Assembly: GCA_031459535.1 (NCBI GenBank)
Contig: JAVKIJ010000063.1
Coordinates: forward strand, 1 to 18,887
From: Candidatus Fervidifonticultor quintus
GTDB lineage: Bacteria > Sysuimicrobiota > Sysuimicrobiia > Sysuimicrobiales > Humicultoraceae
Direction: 5' to 3'
DNA length: 18,887 nucleotides
A model generated the notes under the pieces. It searched no databases. It saw only the letters and a program-made list of their open reading frames with translations, and was not told where the DNA came from. The position numbers and the translations under genes are program-made. Of this stretch, positions 1 to 18,614 are shown in pieces; positions within the stretch are counted from its first letter, which is position 1, and each line of letters opens with the position of its first letter.

Positions 1-239
1 CAGCTCTCGGCCAGAGACGGTGCGATCTTCCCGTCGTGGGTGCGCTTCACCAGTTGTTCATAGACGAAGCCGGCCACGAAGCTGGTCGGCGCTTCCTGGA
101 TGCGGATGGGATCGAGGACCGTGAGGTCGGCCTCATTGGCGATCACCAGTTCCTGGGCCGCCGGCGCAGACGAGACCGCACCGCCGCTCGCCAGCAGCGC
201 CGCCACCACCAGTACCACCACCAACCATGCCTGGGGCAT
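1..239 (-). CDS. ABC transporter substrate-binding protein, family 5 (OppA/DppA-like); N-terminal part, runs off the window
   Basis: Not in the ORF track. Manual translation: MPQAWLVVVLVVAALLASGGAVSSAPAAQELVIANEADLTVLDPIRIQEAPTSFVAGFVYEQLVKRTHDGKIAPSLAES. It has a signal peptide and LDP...VYEQLV...I-x-P-x-LAES, typical of SBP family 5. RBS GGAGGTGA lies upstream. Confidence 0.85.
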   Translation of the reverse strand, partial: MPQAWLVVVLVVAALLASGGAVSSAPAAQELVIANEADLTVLDPIRIQEAPTSFVAGFVYEQLVKRTHDGKIAPSLAES

Positions 240-312
240 GGCGCTCACCTCCAGAGACCCCCGTGGTCATTTCACGCTGAATACCACCGCGCGTCAAGCG
301 CTGTAGGGCTAC

Positions 313-341
313 TTGCACAGGTCAGGGTGAGGCGCTACTCT
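313..341 (+). promoter_or_regulatory. Putative sigma70-type promoter for the cupredoxin gene
   Basis: TTGCAC (313-318), 17-nt spacer, TACTCT (336-341) in the divergent intergenic region. Confidence 0.45.
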
Positions 342-398
342 TGCGGAGGTGGTTCGCCGCTTGCGCGGCACAATACTGTGGGAGGAGGCAGGAGTCGA

Positions 399-878
399 AT
401 GCGCAACGTATGGTTTGTCCTCGCCGTGCTGGTCGTCGCGGCCGTCGCGGCCGGGTGCGGTGGGAGAGGCGGCGAGCAGCCCGCCGCTCAACAGCCGACC
501 CCTGGGGCGTCACCGGCAACCGCCGCATCGCCCCAACCCGCGGCGTCACCGGCGGCAGCCGCGTCACCCGCTGCGCCGGGGCGCGGGGTCGAGGGTGGGG
601 AGGTCGTCATCGTGATGAAGGACAATCTCTACGAGCCGGCGACCGTCACGATCAAGGCGGGCCAGGAGTATGAGTTCGTCGCCAAGAACGAGGGGACCAC
701 GGTCCACAACCTGATCATCCAGGCGAAGGATCAGGTGGGCCAGGACTTCGCCTCCGACATCGCGGTGAACGCCGGGCAGGACAGCAAGTTCAAAGTCAAA
801 ATCGACAAAGAGGGCACCTACCCCATGGTGTGCACGTATCATCCCGAGATGAAAGGCGAGGTCAAGGTCGTCAGATAG
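399..878 (+). CDS. Cupredoxin (type 1 blue copper) lipoprotein with Pro/Ala-rich tether
   Basis: ATG at 399 after GGAGGAGG/GGAG. Signal peptide MRNVWFVLAVLVVAAVAAG-C ends in a lipobox. C-terminal cupredoxin domain has H (VHNL) and C-T-Y-H-P-E-M copper ligands. The ORF-track start at 36 is a shadow extension. Confidence 0.88.
   Translation: MRNVWFVLAVLVVAAVAAGCGGRGGEQPAAQQPTPGASPATAASPQPAASPAAAASPAAPGRGVEGGEVVIVMKDNLYEPATVTIKAGQEYEFVAKNEGTTVHNLIIQAKDQVGQDFASDIAVNAGQDSKFKVKIDKEGTYPMVCTYHPEMKGEVKVVR
507..578 (+). repeat. Four imperfect 18-nt tandem repeats encoding ASPATA/ASPQPA/ASPAAA/ASPAAP linker
   Basis: Units start at 507, 525, 543 and 561 (GCGTCACCG-like), in frame within the cupredoxin gene. 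Confidence 0.75.
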
Positions 879-905
879 GCTAGCCAGGCCGGACACTGGC
901 ATTCT

Positions 906-948
906 GCCGGCGAGGGGCGGGGGTAGTCCGCCCCTCGCCGGCTTTGCT
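906..948 (+). terminator. Intrinsic terminator after the cupredoxin gene
   Basis: Perfect 15-bp stem GCCGGCGAGGGGCGG (906-920) / CCGCCCCTCGCCGGC (928-942), 7-nt loop, then TTTGCT. Confidence 0.75.
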
Positions 949-1081
949 CCAGACCTTCGGACGTCGGGTGTTCCCCTGATGCCAAATCAGGTCCAGGCTG
1001 GATTGTGGGCGGCAACCCCGAGGGGTACCGTCGGAAACAAGAGTAAACGGGTAAGAATATCCGGATTCTTGAGGACGACCC

Positions 1082-1525
1082 ATGGAGTTGAGCCGAGCCG
1101 CCCAGTTCGCCATCCGCACCGTCGTGGACCTGGCGGCGGTAGGGCCCACCCGGACGGCCGACATCGCCGCTCGCCGTGGCATCCCGCCTGCGCAGGCCGG
1201 AAAGATTGTGCAGCAGCTCGTGCGTGGCAGCATTGTGCGCACCACCCGGGGGGCGGCCGGCGGCGTGCGCCTGGCACGGCCGGCCGAGCGGGTGACGCTG
1301 AAAGAGGTCATCAACGCCGTCGAAGGCCCCCTGGCCGTCTCCCGGTGTATTGTCTACGACGACTGTCCCTGTGTGCAGCCCTGCCCCGTTCGTACAGCCC
1401 TGAGCCGGATTCAGCACGAACTTGAGCGCCTGTTGGACGGCGTGACCGTCGCCGACCTGGCAAGAGACGACAGGCGTCCGCGACGATCGGCCGGTGCGCC
1501 TGACGGAAGCGACATCGACGCATGA
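1082..1525 (+). CDS. Rrf2-family (IscR/NsrR-like) transcriptional regulator, probably Fe-S binding
   Basis: wHTH with RGAAGGVRLARPAERVTLKEVINAVEG signature, Cys cluster C-x5-C-x-C-x3-C, RBS GAGGA. Confidence 0.92.
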   Translation: MELSRAAQFAIRTVVDLAAVGPTRTADIAARRGIPPAQAGKIVQQLVRGSIVRTTRGAAGGVRLARPAERVTLKEVINAVEGPLAVSRCIVYDDCPCVQPCPVRTALSRIQHELERLLDGVTVADLARDDRRPRRSAGAPDGSDIDA

Positions 1526-1538
1526 AGGGAGGACGGAC

Positions 1539-3521
1539 ATGACGCGATTGACGTTGACGCTGACCGCGGTGGTCGTGGCCGCGCTGCTGGTGACCGGCGC
1601 TTATCTGCTCGGGGCCCGCTCGGCCTCCGGGTTGGCGGGACTGGCCGAGGCTGCCCAGATTGCCCAGGCCCGTCAGCTCGGGCCCGACGCCGTGAGCGCA
1701 GCCGTGCGAAGCTTCGTCCCGCCGGGAAAGCAAGACGAGTACCTGATGTTCTCGTCCGGCGGCCACTCGGGCCAGATCCTGGTCATCGGCATCCCGTCCA
1801 TGCGGCTGCTCAAGGTGATCGGCACGTTCTCCACCGAACCGTGGCAGGGATTTGGCTATGGGGCTGACTGGTCTCAGAAGGTGCTGGAAGGCGGCTCCAA
1901 CGGTAGCGCGGCCCCGCTCACATGGGGGGACACCCACCACCCGGCGTTGTCTGAGACCAACGGCGACTATGACGGCCGGTGGGTCTACATCAACGATCGA
2001 GCCAATGGCCGGATCGCCATGGTCGACCTGCGCGACTTCCGCGTCAAGCAGATCGTGAAGATCCCCAACATGATGACCTCGCACGGCGGGGTGTTCGCCA
2101 CGCCCAACACCGATTACGTCCACGTGTCCAGCAAGATCCCCACTGTCTGGGGTGGCGGGTACGCGCCGTTGGAACAGTACAAGGACAGGTACCGAGGCGC
2201 CTCCGCGTGGCTGGCCGTGGACAAGGCGACCGGGCGGATCGACCTCGCCCGATCTTTCCAGATTGAACTGCCCCCGTACAACCAGGACCTGGCTGATGCG
2301 GGCAAGCTGGCCAGCGACGGATGGGGCTTCATCAACTCGTACAACACCGAGATGGCCACCGGCGGCAACATGGAGGGCAAGCCGGCCATCGAGGCCGGGG
2401 CCTCGGCCCGGGACTTCGACTTCCTGCACATCATCAACTGGAAGAAGGCCGAGCAGACACTCGCTGCGGGCAAGTTCGAGATGCGCAACGGGATCAAGGT
2501 CATCCCGCTACAGACGGCGGTGGCGGAGGGCCTGCTGTATTTTGCGCCCGAGCCGCGCAGCCCGCACGGCGTGGACGTGGCGCCCAACGGTCAGTACATC
2601 GTCGTCTCCGGCAAACTGGACCCGCACACCACGGTCTACAGTATCGACAAGATCAAGGCGGCCATCGAGAGGAAGGATTTCGAGGGCACCGATCCCTTCG
2701 GCGTGCCCATCCTCAGGTTCGACGCGGTGGTCGCTGCCCGGGTGGCGGTGGGCAACGGCCCTCTGCACACCCAGTTCGACGATAAGGGCTACGCGTACAC
2801 CAGCCTGTTCGTGGACAGCGCCGTCGCCAAGTGGTCGCTGGGCGAGCCCTACCACAAAGGCGACGCGGCCTGGAAGCTGGTGGACAAAGTCTCGGTGCAC
2901 TACAACATCGGGCACCTCTCGGTTGCCGAGGGCGACACCGTCAGCCCCGACGGCCGGTACCTCGTGGCGCTCAACAAGTGGTCGGTGGACCGCTATCCGG
3001 TCCTGGGCCCGCTGCACCCGCAGAACTTCCAGCTCATCGACCTGACCGGGCCCAAGATGAGGATCGTCTATGACATGCCCATTCCCATCGCCGAGCCGCA
3101 CTACACGCAGATCGTCAAGCTGGACAAGATCAAGGCCTGGCAGGTCTATCCTATGGGTACAGACATCCTGACCATGGAGCGCAGCCCTTATGCTACCGAG
3201 CGCGGCAAGGAGCGCATCGAGCGGAAGGGCAACACGATCGAGGTATGGATGACCGCGGCCCGCAGCAACTTCCGGCCGGACATCGTGCGGGTCAAGAAGG
3301 GCGATGTGGTCGTCCTGCACATCACCAATACCGAGAAGATCCGCGACGCGACCCACGGCTTCGCGATACCGGACTACAACATTCAGATGAGCGTTGATCC
3401 GGGCGAAACCGTCACGGTCAGGTTCGTGGCATCCAAGCCCGGGGCGTTCAGCTACTACTGCACCGAGTTCTGTTCGGCGCTGCACCTGGAGATGCAGGGC
3501 TGGCTGTTGGTGGAGCCCTAA
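1539..3521 (+). CDS. nosZ: Nitrous oxide reductase, clade II (Sec-type), no cytochrome c extension
   Basis: RBS AAGGGAGGA then ATG 1539. Hydrophobic N-terminus has no twin-Arg. Motifs: SGGHSGQ; CuZ His in DTHH, SHGG, SPHG, PLHT, NIGH, EPHY; CuA THGF and YCTEFCSALHLEM at the C-terminus. Confidence 0.98.
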   Translation: MTRLTLTLTAVVVAALLVTGAYLLGARSASGLAGLAEAAQIAQARQLGPDAVSAAVRSFVPPGKQDEYLMFSSGGHSGQILVIGIPSMRLLKVIGTFSTEPWQGFGYGADWSQKVLEGGSNGSAAPLTWGDTHHPALSETNGDYDGRWVYINDRANGRIAMVDLRDFRVKQIVKIPNMMTSHGGVFATPNTDYVHVSSKIPTVWGGGYAPLEQYKDRYRGASAWLAVDKATGRIDLARSFQIELPPYNQDLADAGKLASDGWGFINSYNTEMATGGNMEGKPAIEAGASARDFDFLHIINWKKAEQTLAAGKFEMRNGIKVIPLQTAVAEGLLYFAPEPRSPHGVDVAPNGQYIVVSGKLDPHTTVYSIDKIKAAIERKDFEGTDPFGVPILRFDAVVAARVAVGNGPLHTQFDDKGYAYTSLFVDSAVAKWSLGEPYHKGDAAWKLVDKVSVHYNIGHLSVAEGDTVSPDGRYLVALNKWSVDRYPVLGPLHPQNFQLIDLTGPKMRIVYDMPIPIAEPHYTQIVKLDKIKAWQVYPMGTDILTMERSPYATERGKERIERKGNTIEVWMTAARSNFRPDIVRVKKGDVVVLHITNTEKIRDATHGFAIPDYNIQMSVDPGETVTVRFVASKPGAFSYYCTEFCSALHLEMQGWLLVEP

Positions 3522-3539
3522 TTTAGCCTCCCGCGATGC

Positions 3540-3566
3540 GGGGGAGGGGCTGCTCGACCCTCCCCC
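3540..3566 (+). other. Intergenic stem-loop between nosZ and nosL
   Basis: GGGGGAGGG (3540-3548) pairs with CCCTCCCCC (3558-3566); no U-tract follows. Confidence 0.55.
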
Positions 3567-3579
3567 CGGGGGATGCGCG

Positions 3580-4059
3580 ATGGCAGTCACACGGAGACGG
3601 TTTCTCTACCTGGCGGCCGCCGCAGCCGCGGGGACCGCGGCCGCTCCCGCAGCCTGGGCGCTGCTTGGCCGCGCGCCCGTCGAGGTCGGCCCGCCGACCA
3701 TCCGCTACGGCCGCGACCGGTGCGACGCCTGCGGGATGATCATCAGCGACCCTCGCTACGCAGCTGCGGCGTGGAGCGGCGCGAGCGCTTCCCGCTACGA
3801 CGACATCGGATGCCTGATCGGCCGCATGGGGCAGGCCCTGGCAAGCGGCAAGGCTGCGGCGTACGTCCACGATGCCTCCAGCCAGGAATGGCTGGAAGCC
3901 GAGTCGGCCGTCTTCGTGCGTTCACCGGCGGTCCACACGCCGATGGCATCGGGCATTGCCGCGTACGCCACTGGCGAGGTCGCGGCCCGCGCGCACCCCG
4001 GCGCCGAGCTGCTGACCTTCCAGGCCCTGCTGGGCACGGGAGGCCGGGCGCCGTCATGA
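3580..4059 (+). CDS. nosL: NosL-family copper chaperone with twin-arginine-type leader
   Basis: Start MAVTRRRFL at 3580. Motifs CDACGMII, YDDIGC, W-x-x-A-x-x-A-x-F-V and TPM; lies directly after nosZ. Confidence 0.88.
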   Translation: MAVTRRRFLYLAAAAAAGTAAAPAAWALLGRAPVEVGPPTIRYGRDRCDACGMIISDPRYAAAAWSGASASRYDDIGCLIGRMGQALASGKAAAYVHDASSQEWLEAESAVFVRSPAVHTPMASGIAAYATGEVAARAHPGAELLTFQALLGTGGRAPS

Positions 4060-6026
4060 TGGCTGGCGCGCGCGAGCGGCGCGTCGTGGCCATGGCAGTG
4101 GGGCTGGCGTTCCTCCTGCTCGCGGCCGGCGCGCTGCTGCCGCTGTGGTCGATGACCCTTTACGCACCCCAGTACGTCAACGGCCTCCGGTTGACCATCG
4201 AGGGCCGCGGTGTGCGCGGCGACGTAGACGAGCTCAACGCCCTCAACCACTACATCGGGATGCCCCCCATCCGCCAGGAGGACATTCCCGAGGCGCGGCT
4301 CTTCTACCCGGCAGTGGCGGCGATCGCAGTCGGCCTGCTCCTCGTGCCGTTCATGCCGTGGCGGCCCTTCCGGTGGCTGGTGCTCTTCGGAGCGTGGGCG
4401 CTGCCGCTGGCCTTCCTGGCAGACCTGCAGTGGCGGCTCCACACCTTCGGTCACAGCCTGGACCCCAAGGCCGCCTTCCGGCTGCCGCTGTTCACGCCGA
4501 AGGTGCTCGGCCCCACGGTCGTGATGAACTTCAACGTGATGGCGATACCCGGCGCAGGCCTCCTCCTGCTGCTGCTGAGCGCGCTGGTGGCGACCTTTGG
4601 GCCGCGTCTGGCCAGCCGGGGACTGCACTGGCGCCGCGCCGGGGCGAGCATGGGGCTGGCAGCCACGGCGGCGCTGGTGCTGGCGCCGGCAGCGCCAGCG
4701 TCGACCTTGGCGCGGGTGCCGGTGGCTGGCTTCGACCTGCGGGCCGCCGTTGCGGCTGCCGCGCCGGGTGCGGTCCTCGATGTGCCCCCCGGCCTTTACG
4801 ATGGCCCCCTGGTTTTGACCAGGGCCATCACGCTGCGGGGAGGAGGCCAAGCGGTCATCGACGGCGGCGGCCGCGGCGACGTAGTGGTGATCGCCGGCGA
4901 CGATGTGCACCTGGAGGGCTTCGTCGTCCGCGGCAGCGCCCTGGTGTTCTCCAGGGAAGCGGCGGGCATCGTGGTGCGCGGCGCCCGGGCCGTGGTGCGC
5001 GACAACCGGATCGACGACGTGTTGTTCGGTATCTACCTGGCCGGCGCGCGCGACGCGGTGCTCGAGGGCAACGTTGTGCGCGCCGCCGACCTGCCGGTTG
5101 AACGGCGGGGCCATGCCATCTACCTGTGGCGCGCCCATCGCAACCACCTCCGGGCCAACCACGTGCTCCGCGGCAAGGACGGGATCTACATCTCGTTCTC
5201 GGATGACAATACCGTCGAGGACAACCGGATCAAGGGATGTCGCTACGGCATCCACTACATGTACGCGAACCGTAACACGTTCCGGCGGAATACGTTCGAG
5301 GACAATCTGGTTGGGGCCGCGGTCATGTACTCCACCGACGTGACCCTCGACGGCAACATCTTTGCCGGGAGCCGCTCCTCGGCCGCCGGCACCGGTCTGA
5401 TCTTCAAGGACGCCGACCGGCTGCTCGTACGGTCGAACCGCGTGGTCCGCAACCGCATCGGGATGGAGTTCGACAACACGCCGGCGACCATCGGGAGCTG
5501 GGCACGGGTCGAACGCAACCTGATCGCCTTCAACGAGATTGGCTTCAACCTGATGAGCACGGCGGCGATCACCGCCACGGAGAATGTCATTGTCGAGAAC
5601 CTGCAGGCGGTGCGCTGGCGCGGCGCCGCCACCTCGGGCGGCAACCGGTGGGCTGCAGGCGGCAGGGGCAACTACTGGGGCGACTACGCCGGCTTCGACG
5701 CCACGGGCGACGGGATCGGTGATGTCCCATATCGGAGGACGGACCTCCTGGAGGGTCTGGCCGGCCGGGCGCCTGCGCTGCAGGCGTTCCTGTTCACCCC
5801 CGCGCACCTAGCGCTGGAGGCCGGCGTGCGGCTGGTGCCGCTGGTCCGGGCGGAGCCGGTCGTCGAGGATCCGGCACCCCTGTTGCGTGCCCCTCATGTG
5901 CTGACCGGTAGCGGCCCGGAGAAGGCCGCCACCACGGGCGTCGACCTGTTCGTGACCGGGCTGGGGATGCTGGTGCCCGGGGTTGCGGGTCTGGTGGGGT
6001 TGCGGCTCTGGAGGCGCCGGCCGTGA
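4056..6026 (+). CDS. nosD: Fusion of NosB-like membrane protein (N-terminal) and NosD maturation protein (C-terminal, beta-helix)
   Basis: ATGA overlap with the nosL stop. N-terminal part has PLW..TLYAPQY..GL, ELNALNHYIGM and FGHSLDP plus 4 TM segments (clade II NosB-like). C-terminal part has GHAIYLW, DGIYISFS, RYGIHYMY and GNYWGDYAGFDATGDGIGDVPY (NosD), then a C-terminal TM segment. Confidence 0.9.
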   Translation: MMAGARERRVVAMAVGLAFLLLAAGALLPLWSMTLYAPQYVNGLRLTIEGRGVRGDVDELNALNHYIGMPPIRQEDIPEARLFYPAVAAIAVGLLLVPFMPWRPFRWLVLFGAWALPLAFLADLQWRLHTFGHSLDPKAAFRLPLFTPKVLGPTVVMNFNVMAIPGAGLLLLLLSALVATFGPRLASRGLHWRRAGASMGLAATAALVLAPAAPASTLARVPVAGFDLRAAVAAAAPGAVLDVPPGLYDGPLVLTRAITLRGGGQAVIDGGGRGDVVVIAGDDVHLEGFVVRGSALVFSREAAGIVVRGARAVVRDNRIDDVLFGIYLAGARDAVLEGNVVRAADLPVERRGHAIYLWRAHRNHLRANHVLRGKDGIYISFSDDNTVEDNRIKGCRYGIHYMYANRNTFRRNTFEDNLVGAAVMYSTDVTLDGNIFAGSRSSAAGTGLIFKDADRLLVRSNRVVRNRIGMEFDNTPATIGSWARVERNLIAFNEIGFNLMSTAAITATENVIVENLQAVRWRGAATSGGNRWAAGGRGNYWGDYAGFDATGDGIGDVPYRRTDLLEGLAGRAPALQAFLFTPAHLALEAGVRLVPLVRAEPVVEDPAPLLRAPHVLTGSGPEKAATTGVDLFVTGLGMLVPGVAGLVGLRLWRRRP

Positions 6027-6922
6027 TCGCCATCACCAACCTAGGAAAGCGGTTCGGCGCCTTCGTGGCGCTGGACGGCATCACCACCGCGATTGGCCGG
6101 GGCGCATTCACCCTGGTGCTCGGCGCCAACGGCGCGGGCAAGACCACCCTGTTGCGGTGCGTTCTGGGCTTGGCTGCCTTCGACGGTACCGTGACCGTGG
6201 GCGGCTACGACGTCTCCGCCGATGGCTCGGCCGCCCGGTCGCTGGTGGGCTATGTGCCCCAGCGTCCGGCGCTGCCGCCGGACCTGAGCTGCCTCGATGT
6301 CCTCGATCTGTTCGCCCGCCTGCGTGGGCGGCGCTCCGGTGACCCCGCGTGGCTGGAGAGGGTGGGGCTGGCCGCCGAAGCGTCCGCGCCCGTGCGCGCC
6401 CTGTCGGGCGGCATGCGCCAGCGCCTCGCACTGGCGGTGGCGTTGCAGGCGGATCCGCCGGTCCTCGTGTTCGATGAGCCCGCCGCGCACCTGGACGGCG
6501 CGTCGCGCCGGGCGCTCCATCGAGATCTCGCGGAACTGGCCCGTGGCGGCCGGACCGTGGTGCTGGCGACGCACCTGGCCGCGGAGCCGCTCCAGGTGGC
6601 CACGCAGGCGCTCGTCCTGCACCGCGGGCGCCTGATTTATGATGGTCCCGCAGACCGGCTGGGAGAAGCCGTCCAGCAACGGGTCGTGTTTGCGATGAAC
6701 GGCGTGGGTCGGGAACCCCTGCGGACGGCCCTGGCCAGCATGCCCGATGTACACGTGAGTGAAACGCCGGATGCGATTATCGCGACGACACCGGCTGGAG
6801 GAGCCTTTGCGCTCCTGGCGGCGGTCGCCGCCGCGGGCGTGCGGCCGTTCGAGGTCCACGTGGAGGAACCCATGGTGGATCCCGCGCGGCTCGTCCGGGC
6901 CAACGGGGAGACCAGGCGATGA
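6023..6922 (+). CDS. nosF: ABC ATPase NosF
   Basis: Walker A GANGAGKTT, signature LSGGMRQR, Walker B VLVFDEP, H-loop; GTGA overlap with nosD. Confidence 0.92.
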   Translation: MIAITNLGKRFGAFVALDGITTAIGRGAFTLVLGANGAGKTTLLRCVLGLAAFDGTVTVGGYDVSADGSAARSLVGYVPQRPALPPDLSCLDVLDLFARLRGRRSGDPAWLERVGLAAEASAPVRALSGGMRQRLALAVALQADPPVLVFDEPAAHLDGASRRALHRDLAELARGGRTVVLATHLAAEPLQVATQALVLHRGRLIYDGPADRLGEAVQQRVVFAMNGVGREPLRTALASMPDVHVSETPDAIIATTPAGGAFALLAAVAAAGVRPFEVHVEEPMVDPARLVRANGETRR

Positions 6923-7749
6923 GGACCTTGGGCGTCCTGGTCGGGCACGAACTCCGTGAAGCCGTCCGACACCGGTGGTTGGTGGGGTACGGTGTGCTGT
7001 TCGCCGCTCTGGCCCTGGGGCTCGCCCTGATCGGCCCGCGGATCTCTGGCGCCGTGGGGCTCGAAGGCTACGGTCGCACCACGGCCAGCCTTCTCAACCT
7101 CTGCCTGACCCTGGTGCCGCTGATTGCCCTGCTGTTGGGCAGTGTGGGACTCTCGGGCGACCGGGAAACCGGCGTGCTCGAGCTGTTCCTGGCGCAGCCG
7201 GCCAGCCGCGCGCAGTTGCTCATCGGGCGTTTCGCAGGCTCGCTGGCCGCCATCGGGCTCGCCACGCTGCTCGGGTTCGGGATTGCCGGCGCGCTGATCG
7301 GCCTGGCCACCGGGGCCGCCGGCGGCCTGCAGTACGCGGCGTTCTTGGGCATCGCGCTCGCCCTGGCCGCGGTCTTCCTCGCCATCGGGAGCGCCATCGC
7401 CGTCATGTCGCGCAACCGTGTGCAGGCCATCGCGCTCGCCCTCGCCGCCTGGTTTGCCGCGGTCGTCGTCTTCGATCTGGCGCTGATTGCTGCGGGAGCC
7501 CTGGTCGGCGCCGGGGTGGGGGCGCTCGCCGCCGCGGTGCTGCTGAATCCCGTCGAAGTCGCGCGGATCCTGGCGCTGCTGCTGCTCGATCCGGGCCTGG
7601 AGGTTCTCGGCCCGGTAGGTGGATTCCTGGTGGCGCGGTTGGGAACCGCCGGGACCGCCGCCCTGCTGATGACCGCCCTGGCCGCCTGGGTGACCGCACC
7701 GCTGCTCGCCGCGCTGGCGCTGTTTGAGACCCGCGATCCTCTGACCTAG
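6919..7749 (+). CDS. nosY: ABC permease NosY
   Basis: Multi-TM protein with RTTASLLNL..LVPLIALLLG, DRETGVLELFLAQP and LLNPVE motifs; ATGA overlap with nosF. Confidence 0.9.
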   Translation: MRTLGVLVGHELREAVRHRWLVGYGVLFAALALGLALIGPRISGAVGLEGYGRTTASLLNLCLTLVPLIALLLGSVGLSGDRETGVLELFLAQPASRAQLLIGRFAGSLAAIGLATLLGFGIAGALIGLATGAAGGLQYAAFLGIALALAAVFLAIGSAIAVMSRNRVQAIALALAAWFAAVVVFDLALIAAGALVGAGVGALAAAVLLNPVEVARILALLLLDPGLEVLGPVGGFLVARLGTAGTAALLMTALAAWVTAPLLAALALFETRDPLT

Positions 7750-11418: not shown

Positions 11419-11652
11419 ATGTGTCTCGCGGTACCGTACCGCCTGGTGGAGATCCGCGGCCCGGGGCGCGCGTTGGCCGAAGGGCCCGATGGCGTGCGCG
11501 AGATCTCCACGGAGCTGCTCGACGCGCCGGCCCCCGGCACGTATGTGCTCGTGGCCTACGGCGCCGCGGTCCGCGAGATCGACCCCGCCGATGCCGCACA
11601 GTTGCGCGGGCTCCTGGCGGCCATGCAGGCGGCGTCTGAGGATCTGCCCTGA
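11419..11652 (+). CDS. hypC: HypC/HybG/HupF-family hydrogenase chaperone, atypical (no conserved His)
   Basis: N-terminal MCLAVP and PGTYVLVAYGAAVREID; 77 aa; in hydrogenase context. Confidence 0.82.
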   Translation: MCLAVPYRLVEIRGPGRALAEGPDGVREISTELLDAPAPGTYVLVAYGAAVREIDPADAAQLRGLLAAMQAASEDLP

Positions 11653-11678: not shown

Positions 11679-11793
11679 ACCGCCCCGGTCCTTCCCCCTA
11701 GGCGCTGACCCGGAGACCCACCTACGGCGGAATCCACTGTAGGACCGATGGTGGCTCGCAGGCCCAGACGGTATCGTGGCAATGGAGGACGCT

Positions 11794-12576
11794 GTGGCGC
11801 AGCAGCATCAGTCTCTTGTCGCCCCACCCGTAGATCGGACAGCGGTGCGCGATTCATCGCTGGACGGGATGCGCCTGTTTGCCCGGTTCGCGTTCCCACC
11901 TAATCGCCTGGGGTACTGCGGGGCCGACGTCAACACCGAGATCCTTGGCTACCTCCAATCCGGCACGGCCGACGAAGGGCTGCGGCGTCACCTGCGGACT
12001 TTTGCTGCGGCCTATCCGTACCTGGAGCTGATCGCCCGGTGCAATGGCATTGCCGATCCGTTCGACGTTCGGGTCGTGGAGGCGTACTGGATCGGGAACG
12101 CGTTGCTGGAGCGTGTGGACTGGGCCCGCTACGCTCGGGACCTGCACGAGCGGTTTCGAGGGCGTGCCTCGCCCGCGACCATGGAACTGTTGGTGGGCAA
12201 GCCGCCGGCCGGCGCGCGGGCCCACCACGCCTTCCACGTGTTCGACGTCTCCCGGCGCCTGGGGCTGCCGCACGGCGATCTGGCCCTGGATCTGTGCCGC
12301 ATCGCATGGGGGACGATCACCGCCGTCGAGCCCGGGGCCTTCGTGGTGTCCTACCGGCCCATCGTCATCCAGGCCGGCCGGCTCGCATTTGGCGATCCTC
12401 GGCCGGAGCGGGTGCTGCGGGCGCTGGAGGTGGATCCCGACCTGGACGGCGCCGCGCCCGGTGATGTGCTGGCTTTCCACTGGCGGTGGGCCGCCGTCCG
12501 CTTGCGGCCCGATCAGGTGGCCGCCCTGGAGCGGTATACGCGCGGCATGATGGCGCTGGCCAATCAGACGTTCTGA
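11794..12576 (+). CDS. DUF6390-like uncharacterised protein in the hydrogenase maturation cluster
   Basis: GTG 11794 after GGAGGA (alternative start 11776). Motifs PPNRLGYCG, YPYLELIA, VVEAYWIGN, HHAFHV, CRIAWG and FHW. Family name is from memory. Confidence 0.7.
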   Translation: MAQQHQSLVAPPVDRTAVRDSSLDGMRLFARFAFPPNRLGYCGADVNTEILGYLQSGTADEGLRRHLRTFAAAYPYLELIARCNGIADPFDVRVVEAYWIGNALLERVDWARYARDLHERFRGRASPATMELLVGKPPAGARAHHAFHVFDVSRRLGLPHGDLALDLCRIAWGTITAVEPGAFVVSYRPIVIQAGRLAFGDPRPERVLRALEVDPDLDGAAPGDVLAFHWRWAAVRLRPDQVAALERYTRGMMALANQTF

Positions 12577-12586
12577 ACGAACTGCG

Positions 12587-12832
12587 ATGCACGAGGTGGC
12601 GGTGGCGGAGGCACTGTTGCAGCAGGCGGCGGAGGCGGCCGAGCGCGCCGGGTTGACCGTGGTGCAGAACGTGGGAGTCTGCGTGGGCGAGCTCAGCGGC
12701 GTCGCCCCCCAGGCACTGGCGTTCGCATTCGAGATCCTGCGCAGTGGTCCCATGCTGGGAGGGGCGTCGCTCCAGATCCGCGCGACGGCCGGCGACGACC
12801 TGCACCTGGAGTGGGTCGAGGGGGAGTCGTGA
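12587..12832 (+). CDS. hypA: Hydrogenase nickel chaperone HypA, short form lacking the Zn-finger
   Basis: N-terminal MHE, VGELSGV...ALAFAF, GASLQI and C-terminal GDDLHLEWVE; only 81 aa, no CxxC. Confidence 0.85.
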   Translation: MHEVAVAEALLQQAAEAAERAGLTVVQNVGVCVGELSGVAPQALAFAFEILRSGPMLGGASLQIRATAGDDLHLEWVEGES

Positions 12833-13500
12833 TGCGAGTCGAGGTCCTCGAGCGCGTCCTGCGGGCCAATGACGCGCTGGCAGCGGAGGTCCGCGCCATG
12901 CTGGACCGGGCCGGAACCGTGGCGATCAACGTCATCGGGTCCCCCGGCAGTGGCAAGACCGCGCTGCTGGAGCAGACGGCGGCCATTCTGCATCCTCGGG
13001 TGCGGCTGGGTGTCATCGAGGGCGACATCGCCACCACCCGGGACGCCGAGCGTATCGCCCGGTGCGGTGTGCCGGCGGTGCAGATAGAGACCCGGCTGGT
13101 GGGCAACGCGTGCCATCTGGACGCCAACCTGGTTCGGTCGGCCTTGCAGCGGCTGCGGCTTCCAGAGATCCAGGTGCTGTTCGTGGAGAACGTCGGCAAC
13201 CTGGTCTGCCCGTCGGCGTACGATCTGGGAGAGCACTTGCGCGTGGTGGTGGCCAGCGTGCCCGAAGGCGATGACAAGCCGCGCAAGTACCCCGCCACCT
13301 TCGCACGGGCCTCGGCGGTGGTGCTGAACAAGGTGGACCTGTTGCCGGTGACGGACTTCTCACTGGCGGCGTTCACCGAGGGCCTGCGCGAGGTGGCAAC
13401 CGCGCCGCTCTTCCCGCTCTCGGCGCGCACGGGTGAGGGGCTGGGCACCTGGATCGCCTGGGTTGAGGCCCAGCGCGAGGTGATGCAGAGGGTGGGATGA
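12832..13500 (+). CDS. hypB: Hydrogenase nickel-insertion GTPase HypB
   Basis: TGATG overlap with hypA; GSPGSGKT, ACHLDA, ENVGNLVCP, EGDDKPRKYP, NKVD. Confidence 0.96.
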   Translation: MRVEVLERVLRANDALAAEVRAMLDRAGTVAINVIGSPGSGKTALLEQTAAILHPRVRLGVIEGDIATTRDAERIARCGVPAVQIETRLVGNACHLDANLVRSALQRLRLPEIQVLFVENVGNLVCPSAYDLGEHLRVVVASVPEGDDKPRKYPATFARASAVVLNKVDLLPVTDFSLAAFTEGLREVATAPLFPLSARTGEGLGTWIAWVEAQREVMQRVG

Positions 13501-13991
13501 GCATGACTGGCGAGACCGGAGGAAACGTGGTCCTCGACGCGCTGCGCACAAGCCCCCTGTTTGGATTCCTGGAGTCTGCGCACCTGGAGAAGCTCGTGGC
13601 CTTCGCCCGCGAGGTGTCCTGGCCGCCAGACCGGGTGATCTTCCGCGAGGGAGAACCGGATGACAAGCTCTATCTGGTGCTGGAAGGTCTGGTGGCCCTG
13701 GACATCTACGTGCCGGGCCGCGGCCGCGTCACGATTCTGACCATCGGCCCGCAGGAGGTCCTGGGGTGGTCGGCGGCGGTGCCGGAGGTGGAGAAGAAGA
13801 CCGCCAGCGCCCGCACCCTGCAGCCCACGCGCGCCATCGCCATAGACGCCTCAGCGCTCCATGCGGCCTGCGAGCAGGATCACGATCTCGGCTATCACGT
13901 CTACCGGACGCTGGCCAACGTGATTGCCAGCCGCCTGAAGGCCACGCGCCTGCAGCTGCTGGACGTGTACGGGGTCAGCGAGAGGACGTGA
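13497..13991 (+). CDS. Stand-alone cyclic-nucleotide-binding-fold (Crp effector-like) protein, no HTH
   Basis: IFREGEPDDKLYLVLEGLV, GPQEVLGWS, TASART; 164 aa; ATGA overlap with hypB. Confidence 0.88.
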   Translation: MSMTGETGGNVVLDALRTSPLFGFLESAHLEKLVAFAREVSWPPDRVIFREGEPDDKLYLVLEGLVALDIYVPGRGRVTILTIGPQEVLGWSAAVPEVEKKTASARTLQPTRAIAIDASALHAACEQDHDLGYHVYRTLANVIASRLKATRLQLLDVYGVSERT

Positions 13992-13999
13992 GGGAATCG

Positions 14000-15121
14000 A
14001 TGCCCGCCCGTACCCCGTCGCTGGGCGCCCACGTGGTCATCCCGAAGCCGGCGCTCCAGCATGTCTTCGATGCCCTGCGCGATGCCGGTTACACCGTGAT
14101 CGGTCCCACCGTGGCCCAGGGGGCCATTGTCTATGACAAGATCACCCAGGTAGCCGATCTGCCCATCGGATGGACCGACGAGCAGGGCCCCGGCACGTAC
14201 CGGTTGCGCCGCCAGGCCGATGGGCGGTACTTCGGGTTCGTGGTCGGTCCCCATTCGTGGAAGAAATACCTCTACCCGTCGCGGCTGAGACTCTTTTCGG
14301 TGCACCGCGACGGGGACGGATTTGCCGTGCAGGCCGATGGGGAGACTCCGCCCAAGTACGCGTTCATCGGCGTTCGGGGTTGCGAGATGGCCGCCATCGC
14401 AGTGCAGGATCGGGTCTTCCTGGAAGGCGCGGTCTGTGACCCGTACTACAAGGCTGCACGCCAGGTGGCATTCCTGCTGGCCGTCAACTGCGTCGAACCG
14501 CATGCCACGTGTTTCTGCGCCTCCATGAAGACCGGCCCGCGCTGCGCCTCCGGGTTCGACCTGGCCCTGACCGAACTGGCCGATGCGTTCGTGCTGGAGG
14601 TCGGCTCGGAGCTCGGCGCTCAGATGCTAGTCGGCGTCGACTGGCGGCCGGCGGGCGCCTTTGAGTTGAGCCACGCCCGGCGGCTGCTGGCCGAGGCCGA
14701 GACGAAGATGGGCCGAACCCTGGAGACCCGCGACCTCCCCGATCTCCTCTACGAGCGCCTCGAGCACTCCCGGTGGGCCGAGGTGGCGCTGCGGTGTCTG
14801 TCCTGCGCCAACTGCACCATGGTCTGCCCGACGTGCTTCTGCGCCGACGTGCACGAGGTCTCTGACCTCACCGGAGAGACCGCGGCCCGCGTGCGGGTGT
14901 GGGACTCGTGCTTTGATCGCGACTTCTCCCATGTCTTCGGCGGTAACCTGCGGCCCAACATCCGCGCCCGCTACCGTCAGTGGTTGACCCACAAGCTCGC
15001 GGCCTGGATCGATCAGTTCGGCGTCTCTGGCTGCGTGGGATGCGGCCGGTGCATCACGTGGTGCCCGGTTGGCATCGACCTGACCGAGGAAGTGGCCGCG
15101 ATTAGGGAGGAACCCGAATGA
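14000..15121 (+). CDS. hyhB: Group 3b hydrogenase (sulfhydrogenase) beta subunit, 4Fe-4S dicluster protein
   Basis: [44 protein letters not shown]. Start ATG 14000 (alternative GTG 13988). Confidence 0.92.
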
Positions 15122-15987
15122 GTGCGGTGCAGGTCACCGCAACTGGGCCCCCGGCCGCAGTTCACCCGATGGTCCCCTGGCCGGCGATCATCACCCAGAT
15201 CCAGCCCGAGGCGGCAGGGATCGCCACCTACACGCTGGAGTTCCGGGACCCCGCGGTGCGAGAGGCGTACCGGTTTCGGCCAGGGCAGTTCAACATGCTG
15301 TACGTCCCGGGGATCGGGGAGTCGGCCATCTCCATCAGTTCGGATCCCGCGGAACCGTCCAGCCTCCGGCACACCATTCGCCTCGCCGGCAACGTCACCC
15401 AGGCCATCGGGCGGTTGACCGCCGGCGACTGGATCGGCGTCCGCGGGCCGTACGGGAGCCAGTGGCCGATGGACCGGGCCCTGGGCAGGGATCTCATCAT
15501 CGTCGGCGGTGGGATCGGGATGGCGCCCCTGCGGCCGGCGATCTATTACCTCATCAGGCACCGGGCCCAGTACGGACGGGTGACCATTCTGATCGGGGCC
15601 CGGACGCCTGCGGACCTACTCTACCCGCAGGAGTACGACGTCTGGCGCGGCCACGACATGGACGTGGTGGTTACCGTGGATCGAGCCGACGAGACCTGGA
15701 AGGGCCGGGTGGGTGTCGTCCCGATCCTCTTCTACTCCCTGCGACCCGATCCCAGGCGCACGACGGTCTTCACGTGCGGGCCCGAGATCATGATGCGGTT
15801 CGTCATCTACGAAGCCCTGGCCCGGCGCATTCCCAAGGACGCCATCTTCCTGTCCCTGGAGCGCAACATGAAGTGCGCCGTGGCGTTCTGCGGCCGTTGC
15901 CAGTACGGGCCGGTCTTTCTCTGCAAGGACGGCCCGGTCCTCAGCTACGACCGCCTCGAGCCGTTCTTTGGTGTGGAGGAGTACTGA
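15118..15987 (+). CDS. hyhG: Group 3b hydrogenase gamma subunit (FAD/NAD(P)-binding, 2Fe-2S)
   Basis: [46 protein letters not shown]...CKDGPV. Confidence 0.93.
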
Positions 15988-16799
15988 TGGCCGCACCCGG
16001 AAGGCGTCCCCCGACCCTGGCGGTGTTCAAGTTCGCGTCCTGCGACGGCTGTCAGCTCTCGCTGCTGGATTGCGAAGACGAACTGCTGGCCGTGGCAGGG
16101 CAGATGGACATCGCCTACTTCCCCGAGGCCCGGCGCCGCGCGGTCGCCGGGCCCTATGACCTGGCGCTGGTCGAGGGATCGGTGACCACGGCGGAGGAGG
16201 TCGAGCGTATCAAGGAGGTGCGCCGGCAGTCCCGGATGCTGGTCACCATCGGGGCATGCGCCACCGCGGGCGGCATCCAGGCGTTGCGCAACTGGGCCGA
16301 CGTGGCCGAGTTCGCCCGCGTGGTCTATGCCAGCCCCGAGTACATTCACACCCTGGCGCACTCCAGGCCGATCAGCGACTTCGTGCCCGTGGACTTTGAA
16401 CTGCGCGGGTGCCCGATCAGCAAGGCCCAGCTCCTGGAGCTGATCACCTCCGTGCTCGTGGGCCGCAGGCCACAGACGCCCGCGCACAGCGTGTGTGTGG
16501 AGTGCAAGCGGGGCGGGACCGTGTGCGTTATGGTCGGCTCGGGCATCCCGTGTCTGGGCCCGGCCACCCAGGCGGGCTGCGGGGCCATCTGCCCGGCCTA
16601 CGGGCGCGGATGCTACGGGTGCTTCGGCCCCATGGAGCTGCCCAACGGGGTAGCCCTGGGGACCCGCTTCCTGACCCTGGGCCAGGCCCCCGGGGACGTG
16701 GTACGGGCCTTTAGGCTCTTCAATGGCTACGCGCCGGCATTTCGGGCGACCAGCCAGCGTTTCGGCCGGGGTGCTGTTGCCGATCAATCGGGGGAATGA
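15987..16799 (+). CDS. hyhS: Group 3b [NiFe]-hydrogenase small (delta) subunit
   Basis: TGATG overlap; [55 protein letters not shown]. No export signal. Confidence 0.93.
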
Positions 16800-18103
16800 G
16801 GTCGATGGCCCAGCGGCGGATCAACGTGGACTATCTGGCCCGCGTGGAGGGCGAGGGCGCCTTGCGCGTGGTCCTCGAGGACGACCGGGTGAGCGACGTG
16901 CAGCTCAACATCTTCGAGCCACCCCGGTTCTTCGAGGCGTTTCTGCGCGGCCGGTACTTCCAGGAGGCGATTGACATCACCGCGCGCATCTGCGGTATCT
17001 GCCCAGTCGCCTACCAGATGAGCGCGGCCCACGCCCTGGAGAAAGCCCTGGGGATCGCCCCGCCGCCGGGCGTGCGGGCGCTGCGGCGCCTGTTCTACTG
17101 CGGCGAGTGGATCGAGAGCCATGTGCTACACATCTTCATGCTGCACGCGCCCGACTTCCTGGGGCACGAGTCATCCATCAGCATGGCCGCCGATCCCGCG
17201 CTGCGGCCGTGGGTCGAGCGGGCGCTGCGGATGAAGAAGATCGGCAACCACCTGATGACGGTGATCGGCGGCCGGGAGATTCATCCGGTCTCGGTGTGCG
17301 CCGGCGGGTTCTACCGCGCACCCCGTCGCGCCGATCTGACGGCGCTGGCGCCAGATCTGGCCTGGGGGCTCGAGACCGCCGTCGCTGCCGTCCGGTGGGC
17401 CGCCGGCCTCGCGTATCCCGACTTCGCCCCCGACTACGAGTTCGTGTCCCTGTCCCATCCCGACGAGTACCCGATGAACGAAGGCCGGGTTCGGTCCTCG
17501 CGCGGGCTCGATATCCCCGTCGAAGCCTTTGAAACCCACTTCACCGAGCTGCACGTAGCGCACTCCAATGCCTTGCACTCGTGCCGCGCCGATACCCAGA
17601 CCAGCTACATGGTCGGACCACTGGCCAGAGTGAACCTCAACTTCGACCGGCTGTCGCCTGCGGCGCAGGCGGTCGCGCGTGAGGTCGGGCTGCGGCTCCC
17701 CATTCACAACCCGTTCATGAGCCTGCTGGCGCGCGGGCTGGAGACCGTGCACGCCTTCGAGGAGGCCCTTGCGCTCGTCGAAGGGTACTGGCCGCCCGAC
17801 CCGCCCGCCACACCGGCGGCACTGCGGGACGGTGAGGGCGCACACGCGACCGAGGCCCCCCGCGGGCTGCTCTACCATCGGTACCGAGTGGGCGCCGACG
17901 GGCTGATCACGGAGGCCAGGATCGTGCCGCCCACCGCCCAGAACCTCAAACGCATGGAGGACGACCTCTGGCAGTTCGTCCCGAACGTCCTGCACCTGCC
18001 GCAAGACGAGGTCACGTGGCGGTGTGAGCAGCTCGTCCGCAGCTACGATCCGTGCATCTCGTGCGCGACCCACTTCCTGAAGCTGCAGATCGATCGGCGC
18101 TAG
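16796..18103 (+). CDS. hyhL: Group 3b [NiFe]-hydrogenase large (alpha) subunit
   Basis: RVEGEG, L1 [26 protein letters not shown]2 [12 protein letters not shown] plus short C-terminal extension FLKLQIDRR. Alternative start 16805. Confidence 0.97.
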
Positions 18104-18110
18104 GGCTGCC

Positions 18111-18614
18111 ATGGGCGCCACAGCCCCCGCCGTCCTCATCATCGGCGTGGGAAACGACGATCGGGGAGACGATGCTGCGGGACTGCTGGCGGCACGGCGG
18201 GTCCGGGCCCAGCTCGCTGCGCGCCCGGCGTCTGGCGCCGGGGTGGCCGTGGTCGAGTGCACCCGTGATCCGACCACCCTCACGGAGGTGTGGGAAGGCG
18301 CAGGGCTGGTCTTCCTGCTGGACGCTGTCCAGTCCGGCGCCCCCCCGGGCACGATCCGGCGCTTCGAGGCGGGCACGGAGCCGCTGGTGGTGGGACGGGG
18401 GCGCGGTTCCACCCATGCCCTCGGCGTGGCCGAGGCTGTTGAGCTTGCCCGGGCCCTCGGCCGGCTCCCGCCCCGGCTGATTGTCTACGGGATCGAAGCC
18501 ACAACCTTCGTTCCGGGTACGCGACCCACGCCCGCCGTCGACGAGGCGGCGTCGGAGGTCGCCGGCCGCGTCCTCGGCGAGATCCCCCACGAGCTGATCA
18601 CCCCAGGAGCCTAG
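18111..18614 (+). CDS. Hydrogenase maturation endopeptidase
   Basis: IIGVGNDDRGDDAAG, LLDAV, STHALG, VYGIE; directly follows the large subunit. Confidence 0.93.
   Translation: MGATAPAVLIIGVGNDDRGDDAAGLLAARRVRAQLAARPASGAGVAVVECTRDPTTLTEVWEGAGLVFLLDAVQSGAPPGTIRRFEAGTEPLVVGRGRGSTHALGVAEAVELARALGRLPPRLIVYGIEATTFVPGTRPTPAVDEAASEVAGRVLGEIPHELITPGA

Follow-up and report, generated by a model that had tools for sequence, protein, structure and literature searches.

The window analysed here, the whole stretch of 18,887 nucleotides from Candidatus Fervidifonticultor quintus (contig JAVKIJ010000063.1, forward strand), carries hydrogenase maturation genes followed by the structural genes of a [NiFe] hydrogenase. 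A short hypA gene lies between a DUF6390 gene and hypB. The following features were assigned.

1494–7749, upstream of the hyp genes: clade-II-like nos cluster (nosZ, nosD, nosF, nosY), from Pfam/NCBIfam scans
11419–11652, + strand: hypC, a TIGR00074 match to residues 88–161 of the listed ORF, with a canonical MC start
11776–12576, + strand: DUF6390 protein, 266-aa ORF (PF19927, 202 bits), immediately upstream of hypA
12587–12832, + strand: short hypA, 81 aa, predicted to comprise the nickel-binding domain only (PF01155, AlphaFold model, 34-column gap)
12832–13500, + strand: hypB, GTPase-type nickel chaperone, 222 aa (TIGR00073, 242 bits against a cut-off of 121)
13497–13991, + strand: ORF of 164 aa with a cyclic-nucleotide-binding domain, between hypB and the hydrogenase beta subunit
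13766–15121, + strand: HyhB/HydB-like Fe-S subunit, with homology from about residue 166
15118–15987, + strand: HyhG/HydG-like FAD/NAD(P)-binding subunit (Pfam/NCBIfam scan)
15462–16799, + strand: hydrogenase small subunit, HydD-like, with homology from about residue 186 of the listed ORF
16796–18103, + strand: group-3b-like [NiFe]-hydrogenase large subunit with RICGIC and DPCISCATH ligand motifs
18111–18614, + strand: HycI-type maturation endopeptidase (PF01750)

The upstream part of the window (36–7749) encodes a cupredoxin protein, a nosZ product with a propeller and a cupredoxin domain, NosF, NosY and an unusually long NosD (817 aa). Genes for a universal stress protein, a DsbA-like protein, a hemerythrin and a CBS protein separate the nos cluster from hypC. 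The listed 164-aa "HypC fusion" ORF (from 11158) was over-extended, HypC beginning at residue 88 (MCLAVPYRLVEI). Where E. coli HypC has its conserved His in the motif VLVHVG, the window hypC reads VLVAYG, and its product may be a His-less HypC. At the loci L026:1685–5125, L027, L028, L030 and L031, genes for a family-5 solute-binding protein and two permeases, a nickel/peptide-type ABC transporter, are inserted between hypC and the DUF6390 gene; this insert is absent from the window.

The cyclic-nucleotide-binding ORF is 68–73% identical in all relatives whose locus extends that far, and it overlaps the over-extended HyhB ORF in a different frame. Since homology begins only at about residue 166 of the listed HyhB/HydB-like ORF, the true start of this gene is probably near 13991. 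The four hydrogenase subunits gave best matches to the beta, gamma, delta and alpha subunits of sulfhydrogenase (group 3b), in that order, and the large subunit ends in a nine-residue C-terminal extension. Judged from its sequence, the hydrogenase looks like a normal [NiFe] enzyme, because the RICGIC and DPCISCATH motifs and the C-terminal extension are all kept. A second, Mvh/Hdr-like [NiFe] hydrogenase of the same genome, with Hdr-like partners (a CCG domain, 4Fe-4S proteins and a pyridine-nucleotide-disulphide oxidoreductase), is encoded at G000:C77:6461–15985. Its genes are interrupted by a two-component system and an ABC transporter and have no hyp genes nearby, and this enzyme presumably depends on the hypA and hypB of the window.

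Sequence and predicted fold of the short HypA

The hypA frame is stop-free over 81 codons (translation MHEVAVAEALLQQAAEAAERAGLTVVQNVGVCVGELSGVAPQALAFAFEILRSGPMLGGASLQIRATAGDDLHLEWVEGES), with the N-terminus MHEVAVAE and the C-terminus GASLQIRATAGDDLHLEWVEGES. The protein contains no CxxC motif, and its single Cys (C32) is not conserved in relatives. The stop codon TGA (12830–12832) shares its A with the hypB ATG (12832–12834), giving TGATG at 12830–12834. An earlier, sequence-only reading of this DNA had described an 81-aa protein with an MHE start, zero CxxC motifs and a TGATG overlap with hypB, all of which were read directly in the sequence; it had further stated that the final strand of HypA was kept, and the strand before the missing segment and the G-D-D/E-L...E strand after it do still align with full-length HypAs.

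The short HypA scored 54.1 bits against PF01155 (gathering cut-off 28.9), the match spanning only model positions 1–67 of 112. Its score against TIGR00100, the hypA equivalog of NCBIfam, was 51.1 bits over model positions 1–66 of 116, below the cut-off of 88.1. When 44 clean short forms were aligned, chosen for full length with N-terminal fragments omitted, no internal gaps were needed; H2, E3 and G34 were invariant and M1 was conserved in at least 90%. His73, a potential extra nickel ligand, was not conserved, the relatives having R, Q or S. The hallmarks of the HypA family thus comprised the MHE motif, the PF01155 score, the fold and the hypB/[NiFe] neighbours, with the zinc site lacking. 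By these sequence marks, the 81-aa protein is a HypA homologue.

Alignment of the short protein with full-length HypAs of the same phylum revealed a single clean 34-column gap, which takes out both CxxC pairs and leaves both flanks in register. A four-residue turn (A68-G69-D70-D71) stands where the relatives have 31–34 residues with both CxxC pairs. According to the AlphaFold2 model generated from the 44-row alignment (pLDDT 96.4, pTM 0.83), the protein folds into a helix (2–21), a strand (25–34), two helices (41–51 and 54–57) and two strands (61–67 and 72–80). All 11 Foldseek matches of this model at E ≤ 0.0011 were HypA structures, the best being 3a43_B (TMq 0.88, rmsd 1.9 Å). A profile of the 44 short forms matched T. 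kodakarensis HypA (3a43) over residues 1–67 with E 7.5e-16 and H. pylori HypA with E 6e-12; a second, weak stretch of this profile placed the last strand on residues 101–114 of H. pylori HypA. Because of the family match, the model, the Foldseek result and the alignment gap, we conclude that the short HypA, as modelled, consists of the HypA nickel domain, a tight beta-hairpin taking the place of the inserted zinc domain.

Compared with T. kodakarensis HypA (PDB 3A43/3A44; 5AUN/5AUP with HypB; 5YXY/5YY0 with HyhL), the window's protein shares the MHE motif and the predicted nickel-domain fold (34–36% local identity over residues 1–67), and T. kodakarensis HypA likewise serves a group-3b (Hyh) hydrogenase. 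The T. kodakarensis protein, however, has 139 aa and carries a CxxC...CxxC zinc domain between the last two strands, where the short HypA has its four-residue turn. In crystals, T. kodakarensis HypA reportedly touches HypB and HyhL mainly through its nickel domain. The HypB of T. kodakarensis is of the ATPase type, according to excerpts of PMC12134894, whereas the window HypB is of the GTPase type. H. pylori HypA (PDB 6G81, 2KDX) and E. coli HypA/HybF have the MHE nickel site seen in the short HypA and work with a GTPase-type HypB that binds HypA through an N-terminal pair of hydrophobic residues (PMC3287977, in part); their zinc-site Cys residues are needed for full activity (PMC7055735, in part), whereas the short HypA has no zinc site.

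Conservation within and beyond the phylum

The short form was found repeatedly in the relatives of the window's organism. A separate public cluster contains an 81-aa protein 90% identical to it. Among the 41 nearest genomes, all six of the genus had short-type HypA (model positions 1 to 64–69), as did four other genera, and full-length HypA occurred in five further genera. A profile search of 94 genomes of the phylum gave a HypA match in 40: when the short type was counted as a match ending at model position 64–69, it occurred in 21 genomes (one match being truncated by a contig end), full-length HypA in 21 and both types in two. The ORFs of 12 relatives, read residue by residue, were intact and 79–86 aa long with an MHE or GTG-HE start, and nearly all ended in L-x-L-E-W-I/L-E-G-E. 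DUF6390 adjoins the short hypA in 11 of 11 loci of relatives, with hypB directly after it in 10, and the order DUF6390–hypA–hypB was seen in nine of the nine longer named loci. Group 3b genes lie downstream wherever the contig continues, except at L033, which has a different hydrogenase there.

Two divergent arrangements were also observed. At L022 (G039:C2), in another family of the phylum, a more divergent short HypA of about 86 aa (VHERGLVQ...VESVDLEG), with a longer linker and no CxxC, sits between a HycI-like protease and DUF6390, with no hypB match within the 3.2-kb locus. At L110:8656–9225 (G001:C44), in the same genus as the window, a second HypA-like gene closes a group-4-type hydrogenase cluster whose large subunit is a fused Complex1 30-kDa/49-kDa protein. 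This HypA-like protein keeps both CxxC pairs and lacks the MHE N-terminus (Pfam match from model position 12; likely start MRGAEDLL). It thus mirrors the short form, which lies 16 kb upstream of it on that contig.

We then examined selection on the short hypA with the NG86 method. For 13 sequences, the 78 pairwise dN/dS values ranged from 0.09 to 0.58 and were thus all below 1; because the sequences are kin, these comparisons are non-independent. Where hypA dS was < 0.5 (seven pairs), hypA gave 0.09–0.42; six of these close pairs gave 0.09–0.32 for hypA against 0.14–0.32 for hypB. At larger distances, hypA reached 0.2–0.58 against 0.09–0.3 for hypB, that is, two to four times higher, and the constraint on hypA is therefore looser than that on hypB. 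Within the window's genome, which is 88.9% complete, this hypA was the sole PF01155 match over the cut-off.

In a hot-spring metatranscriptome library, a 552-nt contig covered 12214–12765, extending from the last part of the DUF6390 gene into hypA. It differs at five positions, of which the two within hypA are synonymous (L11 ttg>tta and A47 gca>gcg). The same library also gave contigs over portions of hypC, hypB and the hydrogenase subunit genes, in 26 of 30 bins. Because contigs assembled from an RNA library may include DNA and reveal neither strand nor expression level, this hint of expression is a weak one. The sequencing runs X5 and X6 matched only in pieces of 32–43 nt and were uninformative on habitat or strain.

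Since the gene is intact in relatives, keeps its place, shows dN/dS below 1, is the sole hypA of its genome and encodes a confidently predicted fold, it is not a pseudogene, nor is it an artefact of assembly. The sequence-only reading had likewise held that it was "not a pseudogene" and had suggested that short homologues be searched for, that dN/dS be determined and that a full-length hypA be sought elsewhere in the genome. Each line of work came out in its favour: the deletion recurs across the genus, four other genera, the phylum and beyond, and so is not peculiar to one assembly or strain, the gene is under purifying selection, and no full-length copy above the cut-off was found.

When 1.84 billion cluster representatives were searched exhaustively with HMMER, 750 matched at E ≤ 0.001. 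Among the best 150 of these 750 representatives (50%-identity clusters), 50 were at most 95 aa long without CxxC, 70 had two or more CxxC motifs and 30 were of other kinds (fragments, frameshifts, one CxxC, N-terminal extensions). Most of the 50 short representatives were 77–88 aa long and aligned end to end; several were fragments. Short forms only 30–63% identical to the window's protein share its excision boundaries, and these other CxxC-free HypAs of about 80 aa, which belong to other phyla, resemble it in length, MHE motif and G34 as well. One 80-aa short form comes from Paenibacillus thiaminolyticus and bears the NCBI name HypA; one source labels an 80-aa member "Zn finger protein HypA/HybF". 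The cluster representatives P0143 and P0047 have a His/Asp/Glu-rich loop (e.g. EEHDHDHEEHEHTHTHE) at the zinc-finger position, together with no CxxC and the same final strand (...RLAWIEGT).

Genome contigs were scanned with a 6-row alignment. Among the best 80 of 282 relatives, a set steered by two peptide patterns and not a census, 13 proved to be true short forms; the window's phylum contributed nine, and Spirochaetota and Alphaproteobacteria two each. In all 13, hypB lies within about 300 nt downstream. The short HypA is the only HypA match in the two Spirochaetota and two Alphaproteobacteria genomes, and, unlike the window's lineage, all four have HypD, in three cases on the same contig.

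A tree of 116 HypA N-terminal regions (49 short and 67 full; 64 columns), from which 35 of the 150 representatives had been dropped as fragments, for odd lengths or for having one CxxC, was unresolved, with one starred branch. On it the short/full label required 30 changes; shuffled labels required a mean of 37.7, and three of 500 shuffles were as low as 30. The tree is compatible with a single origin of the short form.

DUF6390, the search for HypD, HypE and HypF, and alternative explanations

A profile search for HypD (PF01924) found no match in the window's genome, and tblastn with HypD and HypF from two genomes of the same order as queries found nothing. HypD passed in five of the 41 nearest genomes (three of one genus and two of other genera). 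HypE was above the cut-off in the same five and HypF in four of them, the fifth having a partial, contig-cut match. DUF6390 passed in 18 of the 41, and HypD, HypE and HypF were found in none of these 18; the five HypD/HypE genomes had no DUF6390. A [NiFe] large subunit was present in 25 of the 41 genomes. For one genome with DUF6390 and no HypD match, G012, incomplete binning is an unlikely cause, because it consists of four contigs at 97% completeness. A radical-SAM route to the iron site via HydG was considered and rejected, as HydG (TIGR03955) was not found in the window's genome.

The DUF6390 model (pLDDT 74.6) had a helical N-terminal part and a C-terminal part consisting of a beta-barrel and a helix. 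The best PDB matches of the C-terminal part were HypC structures, all weak (E 0.015–0.07) and mixed with OB-fold ribosomal proteins. Cys48, His150/151/154 and Cys174 were invariant in nine DUF6390 sequences, and the HypC-resembling part begins at an invariant Cys. We found no paper naming DUF6390 or PF19927 in the openly licensed PMC and bioRxiv literature. Fervidifonticultor has been placed in the phylum CSP1-3/Sysuimicrobiota, in which hydrogenases of groups 1f, 1g, 3b, 3c and 3d occur (PMC11604079, in part); the word "maturation" is absent from the available portion of that text.

Because HypD, HypE and HypF were not found in this lineage, the pathway in which the short HypA acts there may be non-canonical. 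We tentatively propose, with confidence somewhat short of even, that the zinc-less HypA serves as nickel arm in a [NiFe] maturation kit that is complete without HypD, HypE and HypF. Its members would be HypC, the HypC-like DUF6390 protein, HypB, the short HypA and the protease, and the Fe(CN)2CO group would be made or delivered by an undescribed route. The loss of the zinc finger and the HypDEF-less kit are, however, separable, because short HypAs occur together with HypD, and in G038, from another genus of the phylum, a full-length hypA (C144:11438–11788) adjoins DUF6390 (11833–12552).

The same observations bear on a different role for the protein, which could be a HypA-derived domain acting, for example, as an adaptor or regulator in DUF6390/HypC iron-site handling or as a nickel buffer. 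Such a role would fit the constant adjacency to DUF6390 in the window's phylum, the unusual maturation implied by genomes with no HypD, HypE or HypF, and a description of the zinc domain as needed for partner interactions (PMC13202556, in part). However, the nickel-binding MHE motif is invariant, and hypB comes directly after the gene in 10 of the 11 loci of relatives and accompanies it in all 13 loci of the contig scan. Furthermore, sole short HypAs exist in genomes that have HypD and show no tblastn match to DUF6390 at the locus, so the short form is not tied to the DUF6390 system, and the G038 arrangement shows that DUF6390 can also adjoin a full-length HypA. We therefore regard a different role as unlikely.

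Another explanation is a split gene, with the zinc domain supplied in trans by a separate zinc-ribbon protein. Weak matches to the zinc-finger region do occur in the genome (C59, 18.5 bits; C1:70060–70167, 15.9 bits; C1:87116, 12.3 bits), but all lie below the 28.9-bit cut-off and on other contigs, and the one that was read proved to be a generic zinc-ribbon ORF (77 aa, CxxC...CxxC) away from any hydrogenase gene. In addition, no zinc-ribbon ORF lies within the conserved cluster, and in the model the sheet is closed by the hairpin so that no edge stays open; this arrangement appears very improbable.

Least credible of all is a decaying remnant, an in-frame-deleted and non-functional hypA tolerated since nickel enters the enzyme without HypA: high nickel does rescue hypA and hypB mutants of model organisms (PMC12134894, in part), the dN/dS of hypA exceeds that of hypB at larger distances and the TIGR00100 equivalog cut-off is missed, yet the frame is intact in every relative read, the excision boundaries are identical at only 30–60% identity, dN/dS stays below 1 throughout (0.09–0.42 in the closest pairs), H2, E3 and G34 do not vary, the fold is predicted with high confidence and the short form is the sole HypA in the five genomes checked, from three phyla.

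The HypB partner, the proposed nickel route and its meaning

Together, these results make it likely that the protein is a functional single-domain HypA, a nickel domain from which the zinc-finger domain has been excised, with a hairpin in its place. We infer that this HypA binds nickel, contacts HypB and the large subunit and works independently of zinc; a Zn-independent Ni chaperone, as the sequence-only reading had suggested, is the interpretation that we consider best.

HypA binds nickel at its MHE motif (PMC7055735 and PMC3287977, both in part), and Met1-His2-Glu3 of the short form would, by homology, bind Ni(II). In HypB, residues at the start of the G-domain, Y4/L6 in A. fulgidus and L78/V80 in E. 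coli, are needed for HypA binding and hydrogenase maturation, according to excerpts of PMC3287977. The N-terminus of the window HypB, MRVEV, contains a hydrophobic-x-hydrophobic motif of this kind, and nine of nine aligned HypBs start with M-R/K-V/I-E/N-V, so that positions 3 and 5 are hydrophobic.

A structure model with HypB had been suggested by the sequence-only reading, and the predicted complex of HypB with the short HypA reached the mark, although weakly, with a median score of 0.48 against 0.04 for the best control. The runs agreed in at least 97% of contacts, and the partner pLDDT was 88 or higher. Of 157 solved complexes, 116 reached the same mark, as did two of 215 mismatched pairs; those doing so with scores of 0.60 or below were only 18 of the 157 solved complexes and both of these mismatches. 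The counts are rough here, because our own alignments were used.

On this basis, the short HypA may dock on the N-terminal V-E-V peptide and the G-domain of the co-translated GTPase HypB and receive nickel from HypB or with its help. It would then hand the nickel to the immature large subunit of the downstream group-3b-like hydrogenase and probably also deliver it to the Mvh/Hdr-like hydrogenase encoded elsewhere in the genome. This would follow the canonical scheme, in which nickel reaches the large subunit via HypA and HypB (PMC12134894, in part). By analogy with the canonical pathway, the HycI-type protease would subsequently trim the C-terminal extension.

Such a route departs from what has been described for canonical HypA. 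Cys mutants of H. pylori HypA lose hydrogenase and urease activity, and a review places a zinc site in all HypA proteins (both PMC7055735, in part). A 2026 paper describes a conserved two-site HypA architecture, with the zinc site essential for partner interaction (PMC13202556, in part). Since the zinc site matters in canonical HypA, the short form must compensate for its loss somehow. We found no paper describing a HypA without the zinc domain in the openly licensed PMC and bioRxiv literature. The loss of the zinc domain would thus be new, whereas the sequences themselves already stand in databases under the name HypA. This labelling is itself an annotation problem, as CxxC-free proteins are called HypA, and once "Zn finger protein HypA/HybF", without comment.

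The zinc-less HypA will be of interest to metallochaperone specialists. The HypDEF-less lineage, with hydrogenases that look intact, is the bolder lead and may outweigh the HypA variant in importance. The natural short and long HypAs offer a direct comparison for the long-standing question of the role of the zinc domain, and Paenibacillus thiaminolyticus is at least one named species with a short form. A zinc-less HypA that is widespread, under selection and present as the sole copy suggests that many organisms may be able to deliver nickel with the nickel domain alone.
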